Virus record (IMG/VR): IMGVR_UViG_3300012956_000022
Span: 4,201 to 68,200 of that record
Direction: 5' to 3' (one strand)
Source of the DNA: a virus
Length of the DNA stretch: 64,000 bases
The notes beneath the pieces were generated by a model. That model saw nothing but the letters and a program-made list of their open reading frames with translations. It was not told the origin of the DNA and searched no databases. How positions within the stretch are numbered: position 1 is the first letter of the stretch; the number at the start of each line of letters is the position of its first letter. Below, piece after piece: positions 5,155 to 11,700 of the stretch. Position numbers and translations under genes: made by a program.

Positions 5155-5358
5155 ATGAACAGTTATAAATTAAATGGCATGGCAGGACACTATTTCAGAC
5201 AGACCGTCTGCAAACACCTGAAAATCAGCCACACTGAAATCTATAAGACTCTGGAAAAAATCTTTCTGGATAATGTTGGAAATGTCATTATCGAAACCAA
5301 AGACGGTAAAAAATACCGGTTAACACTTACTGAGCATGAGAACACAAATCAGCAATAA
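5155..5358 (+). CDS. Hypothetical protein
   Basis: 67-aa ORF. Confidence 0.6.
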   Translation: MNSYKLNGMAGHYFRQTVCKHLKISHTEIYKTLEKIFLDNVGNVIIETKDGKKYRLTLTEHENTNQQ

Positions 5359-5923
5359 CAGACAGCAAACCGAAAAAGATGCAGAAATAGATGCCAGAGT
5401 GCTCCACCTTGCCAATCATGTGCTTTGCCTGCTGGGCAAAAGGATACTCCCTATCTACTTCTATTCACATAATCCTGAAGAGATGAACAGATGGCAGCAT
5501 AATATCTGCAGGCAGGCTCATATTCTTTGCTATATGTATCTCTACCTGTGGTTCGGAAAAGACTATGATTTGTCCTTTTACGAATCCATCTTTGAGGAAA
5601 CTGTCACAAAAAGCAGGTATGACCACAGTTGGGTGTTTCTTCAGCATAAAAGAGATGACAGTCTGATGTATCTGTGTGATGTGGCAAGAGTTTCAGAACA
5701 CATAGGATTAAAAAGAACAGCTTCCAATAATCCTGAATGTTTTCTTAAGGGCAGCCGGGAAATAACAGAAGAGAGAAGAAGGATAGATGTTGAAAACGTA
5801 TACATGGTTTCCAATGAGTACTACACAGGGAAAACAGTGCAGGAGATTTTCGAGGAAGTTACCATGCTTCTTTATCATGCAAGGGCTAACCCGGGATTTG
5901 TACACGATTTATATAATCAATAA
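5336..5923 (+). CDS. Hypothetical protein, possible Cys-His-Asp (transglutaminase/papain-like) fold
   Basis: Spacing of ICRQAH...DHSWVFL...YLCDV resembles a catalytic triad (inference). Confidence 0.6.
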   Translation: MRTQISNNRQQTEKDAEIDARVLHLANHVLCLLGKRILPIYFYSHNPEEMNRWQHNICRQAHILCYMYLYLWFGKDYDLSFYESIFEETVTKSRYDHSWVFLQHKRDDSLMYLCDVARVSEHIGLKRTASNNPECFLKGSREITEERRRIDVENVYMVSNEYYTGKTVQEIFEEVTMLLYHARANPGFVHDLYNQ

Positions 5924-5935
5924 AAAACAACTAAA

Positions 5936-6685
5936 ATGAAAGAAGAAAAACAAATTCACAAAAGCTACTTTGATGCTCTTCCAAATGAGATAAAAATGGA
6001 GTTTGCAAATGCAGTTCAGGACCTTAACAATCAGATTGTAAAAGTGGCTGATGAAGAGGGCATCCATGTAGCAATCAGTTCTGTCCATAAATTCGTGGAT
6101 GATGAGGTGGAGAAGGCGAAAATAAAATACAGCGAGGAAGGTAAGGCAATCTCCTGCAAAAGGGGCTGCAGTTTCTGCTGTTACATACATGTGGACATAT
6201 CTCCTCCTGAGGCCATGAGAGTGCTCTCTAAGATAAATCTTACAGAAAAACAGGTAGAGCATCTGGAGAGACAGAAAGGATATAACCTGAACAACTGGAC
6301 AGAGTTGCCTTATGCTCACAGAAAGTGCGTATTCCTTGAGAATGGAGAATGCAGTGTCTATGAAGACAGACCACTCTCCTGCAGAAAATACATGGTGGTG
6401 AATGAGCCTGAAATATGCAACACGGAACATGAGAATAATGTAACCACAGTCGCTGCAGCAGGAATTGTGGAAGCCATGTGTATGTCCTCTGCACTTGCCT
6501 TCAGTTCGGCCAGTATGGCACCCCTTCTTTTGACAGCCTGGAACAGCAAACCGGAAGAGATAAAAAAAAGAAGTGAAGAGTATCAGCAAAGAGTCAACAA
6601 AGATAAAAACAAGGAAAATGGATATGACGAAACAGGAGGAGCTGAAAGTGATGCTCCTGAAACAGAAACCGAGGTACTGTCATAA
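5936..6685 (+). CDS. YkgJ/FliB-like cysteine-cluster (CxxxCxxCC, Zn/Fe-S) protein
   Basis: Signature CKRGCSFCC...CVFLENGECSVYEDRPLSCRKY. Confidence 0.85.
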   Translation: MKEEKQIHKSYFDALPNEIKMEFANAVQDLNNQIVKVADEEGIHVAISSVHKFVDDEVEKAKIKYSEEGKAISCKRGCSFCCYIHVDISPPEAMRVLSKINLTEKQVEHLERQKGYNLNNWTELPYAHRKCVFLENGECSVYEDRPLSCRKYMVVNEPEICNTEHENNVTTVAAAGIVEAMCMSSALAFSSASMAPLLLTAWNSKPEEIKKRSEEYQQRVNKDKNKENGYDETGGAESDAPETETEVLS

Positions 6686-6839
6686 AAGCAAGAATATCTA
6701 CCTGCTTGTTTCTGCATGCAGGATAAAGATAAACGGAGAGTACAGGGATGGCTATATCTATGTAAATGAAAATCTCCCTGAAGAGGTCTTTGTAAGAGAA
6801 AAGCAGGATTTTGAAGATAATTTCGTGATGTTGGACTAA
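6618..6839 (+). CDS. DUF1653-like small protein
   Basis: Pattern RYCHKSKNIY...YIY...VFVREKQDFEDNF; start taken at ATG 6618. Confidence 0.6.
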   Translation: MDMTKQEELKVMLLKQKPRYCHKSKNIYLLVSACRIKINGEYRDGYIYVNENLPEEVFVREKQDFEDNFVMLD

Positions 6840-6960
6840 AGTTGGGTGTTTGGCGAAGAAGCCGAAACCAAAAGTTAAATCGAAGTACAAAACTTAAAAA
6901 TTAGAACAATATGTCAAACGAAGAACAAAACGGCTTTTTTGCCAAACCCGTGTTAGCACC
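6837..6960 (-). mobile_element. attC-like site 1 (outer core degenerate: TAAA instead of TAAC)
   Basis: Arms GGGTGTTTGGCGAAGAAGCCG (6844-6864) and CGGCTTTTTTGCCAAACCC (6931-6949), then core GTTAGCACC (6952-6960). Confidence 0.75.
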
Positions 6961-7180
6961 AGTTAATTTTGATGCTATTCACGAAGCACGTAGAAATTTC
7001 ATCTATTCAAATAATAGATACCCAACTGTAATAGTTATGCACCCTGCCGATGGTGAAAAATTCATTGACTTAATGCACAAAGAATTTGGTTATTGTGCTA
7101 TGCCTAATTTGATGAAATTTCAAGGGATGCAGATGATAAGGTCATTCGATGTCGAAGAGGGCAAGTGGTGTCTTTATTAA
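6911..7180 (+). CDS. Cassette A gene, hypothetical protein
   Basis: 89-aa ORF. Its ATG lies in the attC1 loop and its stop is 2 nt before GGTGCTAAC. Confidence 0.7.
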   Translation: MSNEEQNGFFAKPVLAPVNFDAIHEARRNFIYSNNRYPTVIVMHPADGEKFIDLMHKEFGYCAMPNLMKFQGMQMIRSFDVEEGKWCLY

Positions 7181-7182
7181 TT

Positions 7183-7318
7183 GGTGCTAACGGTTTGCGG
7201 CTTGTAGCTGAAAGGGATTTAGAAGCACAATATTTCAACTTTGCACTACTGCCGATTAGAACCATAAATGATGAATGTAGCATATCTGCCCTTTTTGCTA
7301 CAAACCGCTGTTACCTGC
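7183..7318 (-). mobile_element. attC-like site 2
   Basis: GGTGCTAAC-GGTTT-GCGGCTTGTAGC-TGAAAGGG ... CCCTTTTT-GCTACAAACCGC-T-GTTACCTGC. Confidence 0.85.
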
Positions 7319-7355
7319 TGGGCGGATTATCAGTAGGAAATTTAAAAACAACAAA

Positions 7356-7889
7356 ATGAATAAGTACAAAGAAATTGAATTTGGGTTCGGAAATATCGAA
7401 TCAGCAGTAAAAGAATTGAAAAGCCATAATGAATTAGTTTGCGGCTCATTTAATGGTCAAATGTTATATTCTGACATTGACGATTTAGATTCAGCTTATG
7501 TAAAAATTACAGGTAAAACAAAAGCCGAATGTGACGAAGCCGAAAGAATTAAACACGAAGAATATGAAGAGCAACAAAGAAAGCACAAAGAAGCTATACC
7601 CAAACTTACAAAAGAATGGATTGAAAAAGGCAATACCATTTTAGACGAAAAGTATCGTGAATTATGGGCTAAATGTGTTCCTATCAGACTTGGTGATTTG
7701 TATCAAGGAATGGAATTAGGTAACTGCCTTGAAATAGTTGAACAGCTAAACAATGGTAAAACTGTTGAAGAAGTAAAACCACTAATTGAAAATCAAGGTC
7801 ATTCTGGAATGTCTTTTGGCTTGGTTTGTTCAATGATAAAATCTTTCTGTGATAGAGGCGAGGAATTTGTCAATTATGCACGGTCGTAG
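7356..7889 (+). CDS. Cassette B gene, conserved hypothetical phage protein
   Basis: 177-aa ORF with a QGHSGMSF motif. Bracketed by GTTACCTGC (7310) and its complement GCAGGTAAC (7894). Confidence 0.85.
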   Translation: MNKYKEIEFGFGNIESAVKELKSHNELVCGSFNGQMLYSDIDDLDSAYVKITGKTKAECDEAERIKHEEYEEQQRKHKEAIPKLTKEWIEKGNTILDEKYRELWAKCVPIRLGDLYQGMELGNCLEIVEQLNNGKTVEEVKPLIENQGHSGMSFGLVCSMIKSFCDRGEEFVNYARS

Positions 7890-7893
7890 CCTT

Positions 7894-8110
7894 GCAGGTA
7901 ACGCTTAACAGATTTATTTAGTTTTAAAAGTATTATTATGACAGACTTACAAAAAAAAGCAAAAGAAATTTATAGAAGAATGACAAGTTATGCTGACTAT
8001 TCAGAAATGAATGGCATAAGTAAAAAATGGATTTTAGGGCAAATAGAAGCAGGACTTGAAGAATACCACAAGTCCGAACTTTTAAAATTGAATAAATCTG
8101 ATGTTATAAG
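7894..8110 (-). mobile_element. attC-like site 3 with a protein-coding loop
   Basis: GCAGGTAAC, then 23-bp arms 7909-7931 and 8078-8100 with two G.T wobbles, a 146-nt loop, and core GTTATAAG (8103-8110). Confidence 0.8.
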
Positions 8111-8189
8111 TTCGGTTTCTGAATCAGGCATACGTCTTGATTTGGATAAAATATTAAATGCTAAAGATACATTTAAAAAGATATTATAA
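7938..8189 (+). CDS. Cassette C gene, encoded largely within the attC3 loop
   Basis: 83-aa ORF that reads through the hairpin arm and core as LKLNKSDVISS. Confidence 0.7.
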   Translation: MTDLQKKAKEIYRRMTSYADYSEMNGISKKWILGQIEAGLEEYHKSELLKLNKSDVISSVSESGIRLDLDKILNAKDTFKKIL

Positions 8190-8238
8190 ACAGAAACTGA
8201 CTTATGTTATACGCTGGGCGGTGTTGAAAACGAAAATT

Positions 8239-8484
8239 ATGAATACATACGAAATTGAAAGAAAATTGGGAGACAAAGCAGACAAATGGGAACTGCATAG
8301 TTTACAAACAGAAAACAGGGAATTAAAAAGCCATGTTAACGAACTTGAAAGAAAGGTTGGATATTTAGAAAGCACGAATATTAATAGATACTATGCACTT
8401 GAAAGGCTTTTTAATATGATGGCAGAACACCCCCAATTTTCTGACTTGCAAAACGAAATATATCAATTGAAAGGCAGTTTGTAG
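8239..8484 (+). CDS. Cassette D gene, coiled-coil protein
   Basis: ATG 8239 after an A-rich leader. Shares its flanks (GCTGGGCGG at the 5' side, TAGCCTTGC at the 3' side) with cassette B. Confidence 0.7.
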   Translation: MNTYEIERKLGDKADKWELHSLQTENRELKSHVNELERKVGYLESTNINRYYALERLFNMMAEHPQFSDLQNEIYQLKGSL

Positions 8485-8494
8485 CCTTGCTGCT

Positions 8495-8716
8495 AAAAGT
8501 AAATACCCTGCATATTTTGTTGGTTGGGTTGGTTTTAATTGCTCTTATAGTGGAAAATGGTTTGGTGGCTTTGCAGGAGAAACAAACACCAAAATAGGAA
8601 CGGTAAGAGATTACCAAACTGAAGCAATAAACAATGTGGCAAAGCAAGTTGAAAAAATGAAAGGTGTAATATTCCAAAACAACCCTTATTATGAATTGGA
8701 ACTACCACCAAACAGT
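8495..8716 (+). pseudogene. Internal fragment of a Dam-like DNA adenine methyltransferase
   Basis: Start-less frame KYPAYFVGWVGFNCSYSGKWFGGFAG...RDYQTEAINNVAKQ...KGVIF...YYELELPPNS. It lacks the N-terminal SAM-binding motif and stops just before the expected DPPY. Confidence 0.7.
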
Positions 8717-8717
8717 A

Positions 8718-11700
8718 CTATTTTAACGCATCAGAGCTTTTAACCCGCTTCAGCATATCCTGATAGGACTCTCCTTTTTTCTTTGCCGGTATTTTCTGAC
8801 TGACTATCTTATTGATTTCATCAGGATCTTCTATGCTTTCTTTAAGCTGTCCTCTCAGTTTTGCTCTTATCTGGGAAATTTCATATTTGGCCTTGTGCTC
8901 ATCACTCCATGCCCATTTGTCTATAGGCAGTGGAACAAACTGTCTTTCCATCTGTGTTTCAAATCCGAAAGAAAGCGGGTTTGCTATCAGCGGAGGTAAG
9001 AATGTTTTGAGTGCCTGATTTACCACCTTATGCTCTCCGGCATGCTCCCCTGTAAGTATCACATCTTTTCCTTCCATGAACTCCTCGAAGTTCTTACCCA
9101 GTTTCAGACAATCAGAAAACAGCCTGATGATGGACATATCCGTTATCGTCCTGTGCATTTCATACAGGTTCAGGTACTGCACGAGGGAGGAGGATATCTG
9201 CGTGAACCGGTTAATGAAGAAATTATGTGCCTTCCTTCTTGCAGAGTCCTTATCATCATCGTCATCCCAGGCAAGCATTTTTGTCATAAGCATGAGTGCA
9301 AGAAGGGCATACATGACAGCCATATCCTGAATGTTGGCTTTCCAGTTTGCCATATCCTGTCTGGTAAATTCCCCTGTAATCTGAAGCCTGTCTCCGGCAA
9401 CCTTTCCTGAATCGGTTTCTATTATCTTACCTTTGCCTAAAATTCTCCCTGCAAGGTTTACAGGCATTCCTGCCATTTTTCTGAAAAGCATCTTATTCAT
9501 GAAAATCATCTCCTCCAGGAAATCCATGGGGCTTGTGGCATCACTGTACATTTTGGAAAAGGCTGCACCGGCAATACCTCCAACCAGTAATCCTGCCGGC
9601 CCTATGGTAAAGGCAAGTGCACCTCCTCCAATCATGGCACCTGCTCCGGGAGTAAGACTTCTGTATCTTCCCTTGAACCCTTTTGTTCCGGTAAGTATAT
9701 TATCCTGCTTTACTGCAAATCTCTTATAGAACTCTCTTGGAAGCCAGGTCTTGAACATCATCAGCAGGGTTCCTAAATGGGTGGACTTGGCCATCATGCC
9801 TGACAGCTGGTCATAATCACCGTGTGTGTCCTTTATCACCGCACTGAGCTTTGTCCTGAAATCAAGGTACTCCTGTCCTGTATTGTCTTCCCAGTTGTCT
9901 ATGTTCTTCTGTACCCCCCTGTATTCATCTTTCAGCTTGAAACCATGCTCTGTCAGTTCCATTGCATCCCATACGTTACCCTTTACTCCGTTATTGTCCT
10001 CTATTTCCGTATCCCTCAGTATGGCAACCATCAGAGGTATCTGGTTATAGGTCTCTGTCTTTGACTGTATAAAGAACGGAGCAAGTTTGCTGACACCTGA
10101 AATACCAGATTTTACGGATGCCTTCTGAAGCTCATTTTTAGAGTCCTGAAGCACATCCCAGTTTTCCATCATTCTCTGTGCAAGAATTGCCCTTGCAAGA
10201 CCACGGCCTTTCCCAAGCCTTTTCATGCTGTCTGAGTACATCAGGTCAGATAATGTCACCGTATCTATATACTCTGAAGGAAACCACATCCCTGAGGCTG
10301 CTATGGCGGCATTTGCAATCTGCCCTTCCACCACGTTTGTAATACCTGAGCTTACATTATAAGCCATCCCCTTAAAACGTATAAAGTTCAGCAGCATATC
10401 CACTATGCCGGATACAGACATATCTGCACCCAGTCTTTTGCTCATCTTTCTCACCTCCTCAAGGTCATCCTGTGAAAGGTTTGGATCTTCCATGAGCCTG
10501 TCAAGACGTTGCTTTATTTTTTTCTCTTCCTCTGTAAAGAGTTTTCCATCCCACTTTCTTCCCTTGGTGATGTATCCTATTGTTCTGGATAGACGGTCTT
10601 CAGCATCCTTGTCAGGTGTTTCTACATCCCTTTTCAGAAATCCATACTGCTTTCTCAGGTCTTTTTCTCCAAGCACCACCCTTCTGAACCAATTGTCAAA
10701 CTGTTTGTTTGCATGTGTCCTGAAACCATCATATCTTGTCTTTCCATACAGTGCACTATTGTATATCTCATCACCGGTGTTCTGTGTAGCCACATTTCTT
10801 ATCTGTTCGTAGTGCCTTTTTATAAGCTCCATGAACGGCAACACCTGCTGTCTTGCAGAATATTCAGCAGCCATTTTGGTATGCAGTTTTAATATCATAG
10901 GAAGGTCAAAGGATTGTTCTTTGGCTATCTGATGCTGTGTGTATGCCCATATTATCTTTCCAACAGGAACTCTCTTGTCAGGATACTGTTCCAGCAGACT
11001 GTCTTTGGTCAGGCCGGGAATGTATCTGTCAAGCAAGCTCACCATGGCATCCGTATTCATTCTTGTGAGATTGATATGTGTCCCTCTTGTGATTTTAGGT
11101 ATTCTCCTCTGGGTAAGAGATATGTAATCCTGAAGAAACTCCATCGCACTAAGATTGAATGCATCCTGTATCTTATTGATGTTGTTTTTCAGGAAAGAAT
11201 CATTGACAGTGTATTCAGGAACTCCTGTCACGGGGTTCACTTTAGCATAACTCATCTGGTCCTGTATCCTCACTCCAATCACAGTCTTGAACCAGTCTAT
11301 GAATCTTCTGTAGGACTCGGAAAGTATCTGAAGCAGGGTGATGTCAGGAGTGTTCAGCAAATACTCCGCAAAGGTCTTCTTCTGAAAAGGTACCGTAGTG
11401 TCCAGGTTCAGTCTTTTATCCTCAGGACTGTACTGTTCCCGTATCATGGTAGTAGCCTCCTTGGCTATATCATAAAACTTCATGAGCACATCGTTGTCTT
11501 CTATGGCCTCATACTTTGAATCATAGTAGCCAAAGTCAGCTCCGGTTTCCCTGTTGTTACGCAAAGGAATCTGTATATTGTATCTCAGTTTCGGAAAGTA
11601 TTCAGTTTCAAAACCAACTCTGGCAGGTGCATCTGTCCTGATATGTTCAGCAGTCAGAAAAGGATTGTTTTCTGCTTCCCATACCTTTATTCTGGCAATC

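Follow-up and report, generated by a model that had tools for sequence, protein, structure and literature searches.

Small genes behind their own hairpins: a likely decayed array of an integron-like cassette system of Bacteroidota in a phage genome

Integrons are the textbook case of recombination through a folded single strand, and their cassettes follow an orientation rule, in that a promoter at the insertion site reads genes that have none of their own. In the classical system, the integrase IntI cuts the folded bottom strand of attC at 5'-AAC-3' in its 5' arm, between AA and C, and the correct orientation of the cassette lets the promoter Pc read the promoterless genes (PMC5027507). A 64-kb stretch of a 68.2-kb IMG/VR virus record (IMGVR_UViG_3300012956_000022, estimated completeness 72%), referred to below as the window, raises the question of whether such cassettes can also be built the other way round. 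At 6837-8497 of the window, four one-gene units on the + strand are joined by hairpins bounded by TAAC and GTTA (three hairpins and one scar), so which hairpin belongs to which gene? We consider it likely that Bacteroidota and their phages have an integron-like cassette system, in which the hairpin comes first and its gene follows, and that this region is one of its arrays in a decayed state.

The array occupies the space between a + strand block of backbone genes, which finishes at 6839, and a convergent gene for a 1628-residue protein, which finishes at 8718. Four small + strand open reading frames (ORFs A to D) lie between these two points, at 6911-7180, 7356-7889, 7938-8189 and 8239-8484, and all four point away from their own hairpins on the same strand as the phage gene block, as the initial annotation of this sequence had described. 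Hairpin 1 (6837-6958) has arms at 6848-6864 and 6931-6947 that are 88% complementary, and a right core GTTAGCA at 6952-6958. Its left core has decayed to TAAA (6837-6840) and overlaps the TAA stop of the backbone gene that ends at 6839; a viral locus, L274, has the same hairpin in intact form (TGCTAAC-GTTAT), with the left core that the window lost. Together with the 89-residue ORF A it makes up unit A (6840-7190), whose closing core TGCTAAC (7185-7191) opens hairpin 2 (7185-7316). On the + strand this second hairpin continues with GGTTT, GCGGCTTGTAGC and, after the loop, GCTACAAACCGC, T and GTTACCT (7310-7316). Its spacers are therefore 5 nt (GGTTT) on the left and 1 nt (T) on the right, or 1 then 5 nt on the - strand, the short-then-long layout first noticed there. 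Unit B (7191-7901) consists of hairpin 2 and the 177-residue ORF B and closes with AGGTAAC (7896-7902).

The third hairpin (7896-8109) is of a long type, measuring 208 nt from TAAC (7899-7902) to GTTA (8103-8106). It runs from AGGTAAC to GTTATAA (8103-8109), its arms (7909-7931 and 8078-8100) are 91% complementary, and its loop contains the start codon of the 83-residue ORF C. Unit C (7902-8190) ends in the core TTATAAAC at 8184-8191, which has one A more than the expected TTATAAC. The same core is the left end of the scar of a fourth hairpin (8184-8212), in which 14 nt separate it from the right core GTTATAC (8206-8212); GCTGGGCGG follows this right core, as it also follows hairpin 2. The scar and the 81-residue ORF D form unit D (8191-8497). 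Across each of the first three genes, the right core before the gene and the left core after it are reverse complements (GTTAGCA/TGCTAAC, GTTACCT/AGGTAAC, GTTATAA/TTATAA(A)C). The initial annotation had the array begin with a hairpin directly after the backbone stop codon and end after a gene with no hairpin behind it, and this is what we see (terminal TGCTAAA, 8491-8497). Its limits for units A and B are exact, whereas the boundary between units C and D lies at 8190/8191, within the core at 8184-8191, and not at 8205/8206. Under a strict hairpin definition the window has two distinct sites; mononucleotide shuffles give a mean of 0.23, and two of 100 reach two or more. Both outer ends of the array read TAAA (6837-6840, 8494-8497) where TAAC is expected, and the terminal TGCTAAA, a decayed core, resembles the closing core of unit A and is not the complement of the GTTATAC of its own unit.

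Is this arrangement peculiar to one phage? To find further loci, we searched with a pattern derived from the hairpin ends, in which TAAC and GTTA are invariant by definition. The pattern matched at least 120 viral and at least 120 genome stretches, and the listed genome stretches are titled Bacteroidota in nearly all cases (Flavobacterium, Chitinophagaceae, Saprospiraceae and others). Hairpins were also found in cultured Flavobacterium phages and in Polaribacter phage P12002L, where short hairpins of the same layout sit beside methyltransferase genes and are oriented with the gene strand. The fetched loci, 1.36 Mb in all, contain 444 hairpins, against 28 in shuffled sequence, and 248 of the 444 have spacers of 5/1 or 1/5 nt. 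The counts of orientation, cores, gene strand, folding and the smaller of two co-travel tests given below leave out L021-L023 (the same contig as L010) and hairpins whose spacer difference falls outside 3-5.

Neighbouring hairpins have the same orientation in 244 of 246 cases, and a viral locus with gene B (L001) has 13 hairpins with one gene after each. With the hairpin written as TAAC, 5 nt, arm, loop, arm, 1 nt, GTTA, the gene is sense to the side of the 5-nt spacer in 173 of 184 units; in the remaining 11 it is antisense (1), ambiguous (8) or absent (2). Of 244 same-orientation neighbour pairs, 184 have full complementarity between the three bases after one GTTA and the three before the TAAC of the hairpin that comes next, and the three variable core bases are complementary within a single hairpin in just 28 of 379. 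Complementarity across the gene and not within the hairpin is the signature of integron cassettes, where the core at the cassette start is likewise complementary to the inverse core of the cassette's own site. The three outer core bases are free here, and do not follow the YYY/RRR of 5'-RYYYAAC / GTTRRRY-3'.

Which hairpin, then, travels with the gene? For unit A the comparison is direct: window 6850-7192 and L274 336-678 are 96.5% identical with both flanks unlike, and the identity runs from inside the left arm of hairpin 1 to the end of the closing TGCTAAC, so that the unit moves with hairpin 1 and not with hairpin 2. Metagenome contigs match the window from 7188 on, and their sequence before 7188 is unlike. 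For gene B, homology in five viral loci (L001, L002, L003, L007, L017) extends from 7293-7309 to 7902-7906; its upstream hairpin retains the specific outer stem GCGG/CCGC in five of six contexts with differing upstream genes, while its downstream hairpins differ in all contexts compared. Contigs of three unrelated metagenome runs span 7301/7304 to 7905 and diverge after 7903/7905.

A wider count started from 773 candidate units, with L021-L023 and L270 excluded and the left spacer required to be at least 2 nt longer than the right, and yielded 95 homologous gene-segment pairs in 34 families. In 24 of these pairs both sides are syntenic, which makes them uninformative, and one pair is intermediate. 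Another 24 pairs (4 families) are alike on the upstream side and diverge right after the closing TAAC. The remaining 46 pairs (19 families) have both flanks unlike, and 34 of them (13 families) have an upstream hairpin with an identity of at least 0.85. The converse, in which the downstream 96 nt are kept while the upstream flank differs, occurs in none of the 95 pairs. A smaller test gave a similar asymmetry: hairpin identity was at least 0.8 in nine of 28 pairs that have only the downstream gene in common and in none of 18 that have only the upstream gene in common, with a background of 0.7%. In all 12 representative pairs the identical stretch is bounded by TAAC on the left and the closing TAAC on the right, and in 11 of them the three bases before the left TAAC differ. 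The initial annotation had proposed a hairpin with its downstream gene as the unit, and the 13 of 19 informative families in which the upstream hairpin co-travels bear this out; cassettes moving with the downstream hairpin, the observation it had set against its own proposal, were looked for in the homologous pairs and never found. Its further claim, that the break lies at the left TAAC, is upheld by the 12 representative pairs, but some families break at the right GTTA.

These counts bear most heavily on a classical orientation, in which the - strand would recombine, the crossover would lie in the right GTTA on the + strand, between G and TTA, and the unit would be a gene with the hairpin after it. 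The position of the genes does look classical, with a stop codon 9 nt before TAAC in 47 of 173 units, or formed by the TAA of TAAC in 36 of 173, and a gene start at a median of 25 nt after GTTA. On the - strand, moreover, the larger unpaired spacer falls on the 3' arm, as do the extrahelical bases of classical attC (PMC5027507), and a few homology boundaries lie at the right GTTA. Yet a gene whose upstream flank differed never kept its downstream hairpin, unit A of the window moves with hairpin 1, and we regard the classical orientation as hardly credible.

The strand on which the hairpins fold best also speaks to this choice. As single-stranded DNA, hairpin 1 has a predicted energy of -15.6 (+) versus -12.3 (-) kcal/mol and hairpin 3 of -24.3 (+) versus -17.9 (-) kcal/mol, which matches the G.T wobbles that the initial annotation had seen on the + strand at sites 1 and 3. 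At hairpin 2 the strands are equal (-17.7 on + and -17.6 on - kcal/mol), so that the strand comparison it had called for favours + at two of the three sites and leaves the third as a point for the classical orientation. Computed with DNA parameters for 371 hairpins of the fetched loci, stability favours the coding strand in 320 and the other strand in 49, with a tie in two, again contrary to what the classical orientation would need. At stem positions left free by the search pattern, G.T and T.G pairs number 437 and A.C and C.A pairs 13. There is also covariation between the arms, with full pairing at the three outer free positions in 205 of 271 cases, compared with 26.6 when partners are shuffled. 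Arm covariation together with strand-specific G.T pairs points to selection on a folded single strand. Two oppositions are also conserved across the family when the stem is read on the coding strand, a C.A mismatch at position 4 (186 hairpins) and a G.T at position 13 (207 hairpins). These may be recognition features that replace the extrahelical bases of classical attC, from which the sites described here differ in having a 5 x 1 nt asymmetric spacer and the conserved C.A mismatch instead.

What enzyme could act on such sites? L010, a 39-kb phage record estimated to be 98% complete, encodes a 277-residue tyrosine recombinase after its array and on the same strand. Profile searches give it 196.6 bits for XerA (cut-off 220) and, in two stretches, 170 bits for the integron-integrase family TIGR02249 (cut-off 265); aligned with VchIntIA (2a3v) it has 21 residues where IntI has 64, so that, unlike IntI, it lacks the IntI-specific insert. 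Its family comprises 2880 clusters at E <=1e-20, with lengths of about 277 residues, and is named XerD by those sources that give names. Homologues occur in eight of 120 viral and 15 of 120 genome loci among the matches listed for the hairpin pattern alone. Five Flavobacterium-type genomes (2.8-5.8 Mb) have one such gene each, besides two weaker Xer-like matches, and by a rough estimate the recombinase would rarely be found within 8 kb of a hairpin by chance.

Only two arrangements are seen: the recombinase comes after the array and is encoded on its strand, or the array converges on the 3' end of the recombinase gene. In both, the recombinase stands at the 3' end of the array and never at its upstream end. 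Three Flavobacterium-type genomes have one-sided arrays, one with at least 18 hairpins and another with at least 10; in these two (G006:C8:25906-45381 and G007:C2:60505-76590, respectively) the array converges on the 3' end of the Xer-like gene. In phage loci, unlike the Flavobacterium chromosomes, the array is more often upstream of the recombinase gene and on the same strand. The closing core of the last unit lies 52-53 nt before the recombinase start codon in seven loci, and what comes next on this recombinase side is a TATAT-type box, with no hairpin. That arrays end at the recombinase with a hairpin-less gene again runs counter to the classical orientation. Judging from sequence, the hairpin-less TAAC with its TATAT-type box is a candidate attI in these relatives. 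Nothing comparable to it is present in the window, and the genome record of the window, at 72% completeness, has no PF00589 match for a tyrosine recombinase.

A Xer-like enzyme invites another explanation, in which recombination is double-stranded and resembles that of Xer on dif modules, with TAAC and GTTA as duplex sites, both hairpin ends as crossover points and the palindrome incidental. The recombinase does lack the insert that lets IntI read folded DNA, break points occur at both TAAC and GTTA, and inverted cores flank each gene segment as they do in pdif modules (PMC7399989). Nonetheless we think this explanation unlikely: the arms co-vary and their G.T pairs are strand-specific, the upstream hairpin co-travels in 13 families and the downstream hairpin in none, which is not expected of equivalent ends, and the sites are 60-210 nt long rather than about 28 bp.

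A second alternative does without any site-specific recombinase. The cassettes described here resemble those of T4-type phages that are bracketed by the stem-loop elements called PeSLs, where small accessory genes in hyperplastic regions are likewise shuffled as modules between stem-loop repeats; PeSLs are described as promoter-terminator motifs that act through homology (PMC2839356, PMC4122927). By the same token, the hairpins might be stem-loops of the transcript (terminators or processing sites) and the genes might be shuffled by homologous recombination. The G.T excess is on the mRNA-like strand, as this would have it, the phage of the window has no integrase, and hairpin bodies, gene-end stretches and loops are sometimes exchanged independently (joints 7330 to 7884). 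Furthermore, a module that carries its own promoter would look like a hairpin with a downstream gene. The Bacteroidota -7 promoter motif TAnnTTTG, which does not cover phage-specific promoters, shows no positional peak that would mark a PeSL-type promoter in the repeat, its 94 hits being scattered over 742 units. In contrast to PeSLs, breaks here are exact at the 4-base core in 12 of 12 pairs, covariation of the three core bases spans the gene in 184 of 244 cases, which homologous exchange does not predict, and a dedicated recombinase of one family accompanies the arrays with an attI-like site at a fixed spacing of 52-53 nt. Transcript stem-loops shuffled by homology are thus an improbable account of these arrays.

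Several observations nevertheless weigh against an integron-like system with hairpin-first units. In 12 of the 46 pairs with unlike flanks (six families) the upstream hairpin is less than 0.75 identical, although the gene is 82-94% identical. Homology begins at the right GTTA in L037/L122, L074/L120 and L002, and in the comparisons of the window with L001 and L003, and of L071 with L125, the arms are kept while the loop is replaced. Near-identical hairpin bodies stand beside unrelated genes within one array (L001, HP02 and HP04), and the crossover cannot be placed within an invariant TAAC. The G.T excess is equally compatible with mRNA structure, and the fetched sample is biased towards one hairpin subtype because the pattern was of our own design. 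A recombinase that lacks the IntI-specific insert may not share IntI chemistry, and the genome record of the window lacks a tyrosine recombinase, though it is just 72% complete. From the discordant families it follows that the left TAAC is not the sole break point. They indicate another kind of exchange besides (6 of the 19 informative families), which could represent rarer events on the other strand or within loops. Identical hairpin bodies were also considered as proof of co-travel and rejected, since hairpins within an array are alike regardless of gene.

How, then, would an integron-like system of hairpin-first units work? A mobile unit would run from the C of TAAC through the imperfect hairpin to GTTAxyz, include one same-strand gene and end at x'y'z'TAA, and with these limits each hairpin goes with the gene that follows. 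The coding strand, by analogy with IntI chemistry, would fold and be cut in its 5' TAAC, between TAA and C, which would make the coding strand the one that is chemically cleaved. The hairpin-less TAAC beside the recombinase, at the 3' end of the array, suggests that new units would enter there, at the candidate attI, with all genes pointing to the recombinase. Genes would be expressed by read-through from upstream, in the window from the + strand block of the phage. Read-through is favoured by the scattered hits of the Bacteroidota -7 motif, and is probable also because no promoter on the attI side could read the genes. In the window itself, with both outer cores reading TAAA, one hairpin reduced to a scar and no recombinase in the record, the array is probably fixed, or mobile only with a recombinase acting in trans.

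Much of this matches known integrons. As in classical and sedentary chromosomal integrons, one-gene cassettes lie between imperfect palindromes with AAC/GTT cores; as in classical integrons, the sites of an array have one orientation, the array keeps to one side of a tyrosine recombinase, and the junction facing the recombinase is hairpin-less; and long chromosomal arrays, with at least 18 sites, are reminiscent of sedentary chromosomal integrons. The differences concern the genes. A classical cassette has its gene first and attC after it, whereas here the hairpin comes first, and in 13 families it co-travels with the gene after it. The folding strand is here the one that carries the genes, and they point to the recombinase, so that a Pc-type promoter on the attI side cannot read them. 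Followed outwards from the recombinase, the elements come in the order of a classical integron, first an attI-like site and then units that each finish with a hairpin, and only the genes are turned round.

In integrons of the Treponema type, cassette genes still point away from attI and have attC at their 3' end. Only intI is turned in those inverted-integrase integrons (PMC4889954). The arrays described here are similar to them in that the recombinase gene has either orientation relative to the array (the two arrangements above), but differ in that the genes are turned relative to their own sites in both arrangements. Few integrons have been reported in the phylum; surveys with IntegronFinder, as related in PMC9024848, recovered only In0 elements and one complete integron in Bacteroidetes. 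Qi et al. 2023 described integrase-less attC clusters (CALINs) in virulent phages, including Polaribacter P12002L, treated the sites as ordinary attC recombined by IntI1 and spoke of 'divergent directions' in P12002L (PMC9892861). With three hairpins and a scar within 1.4 kb and no integrase, the window has the layout of a CALIN (at least two sites on one strand within 4 kb). In its passages on these clusters, that study proposes neither an inverted unit nor a dedicated Xer-like recombinase. Phage CALINs are thus already on record (PMC9892861). Our literature searches, which did not extend to the site coordinates and strands of PMC9892861 that may bear on P12002L, found no description of the arrays, of their inverted unit, of a dedicated Xer-like recombinase linked to them or of their spread across Bacteroidota.

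More broadly, and with greater caution, we favour the view that these elements form a separate, phylum-wide lineage of Bacteroidota integrons, with an insert-less Xer-like recombinase, coding-strand hairpins and hairpin-first cassettes expressed by read-through, and with virulent crAss-like phages that have no recombinase drawing on the common pool. If this is true, the orientation rule of integrons is not required by their mechanism, since site geometry would be kept with every gene turned and without the IntI insert. Integron-type exchange would also reach a phylum in which surveys found almost none, and Bacteroidota phages, crAss-like ones included, would have a concrete route for trading small accessory genes.

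What the cassettes of the window encode is less clear. Searches with the four array ORFs gave no Pfam match above cut-off and no PHROG match, and hints of Tad3 and Tad4 among array ORFs are sub-threshold and serve as leads only. ORF A has one full-length relative among the fetched loci. A further 36 viral loci (L275-L310) match only its residues 1 to 15-33, before unrelated downstream sequence, and this matching start (6911-6958) is encoded by the loop and right arm of hairpin 1. Across the family, the longest ORF, by predicted start, begins inside the loop of the upstream hairpin in 54 of 173 units. Gene B occurs in 20 viral loci, in viral contigs with and without hairpins, and near-identical copies are present in wastewater, fish-associated and lake metagenome runs. 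Its predicted structure is mostly helical (pLDDT 93.9); against the PDB, Foldseek returned no match at E <=0.001, and the best VIA-align Z of 6.7, to a designed helical repeat, is in the noise range for helical proteins. The fetched loci contain no close relatives of ORF C or ORF D; for ORF C there are partial protein relatives in L271-L273. In four metagenome runs, gene A (7007-7107) and the segment 8320-8420 have no cover, from which we draw no conclusion.

The phage itself looks crAss-like, judging from the giant - strand genes of the record (3460, 1628 and 1558 residues). A megablast search of phage records with window 5300-9800 found no relatives, the 249-residue backbone protein has none in viral contigs, and the C-terminal 400 residues of the 1628-residue protein match three loci at just 26-28% identity, where hairpin matches are at chance level. 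The window contains nothing at Rfam gathering scores and no tRNA in a tRNA scan. Outside any unit, between the array and the convergent gene and reaching up to the stop of the latter, lies a start-less open frame of 84 residues on the + strand (8489-8743). It was considered as a Dam-like or methyltransferase fragment, and no Pfam family matches it at E <=0.1, leaving that origin unconfirmed.

Two further features of the cassettes merit mention. The long hairpin subtype of about 210 nt, seen at 7896-8109 of the window, recurs in L271 (2384-2600 and 3591-3808), L272 and L273; compared with the window, the arms in L271-L273 are 95-98% conserved and the loops differ, and the loops appear to encode related small proteins (55% identity over 40 residues in L271). 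The unrelated genes B and D have short end stretches in common, GTTAnnnGCTGGGCGG on the 5' side and TAGCCTTGC on the 3' side (7310-7330 and 7884-7902 for B; 8206-8221 and 8482-8497 for D), the 3' end of unit D thus matching that of unit B. Metagenome contigs carry other content between joints at 7330 and 7884, as though the end stretches served as reusable adapters.

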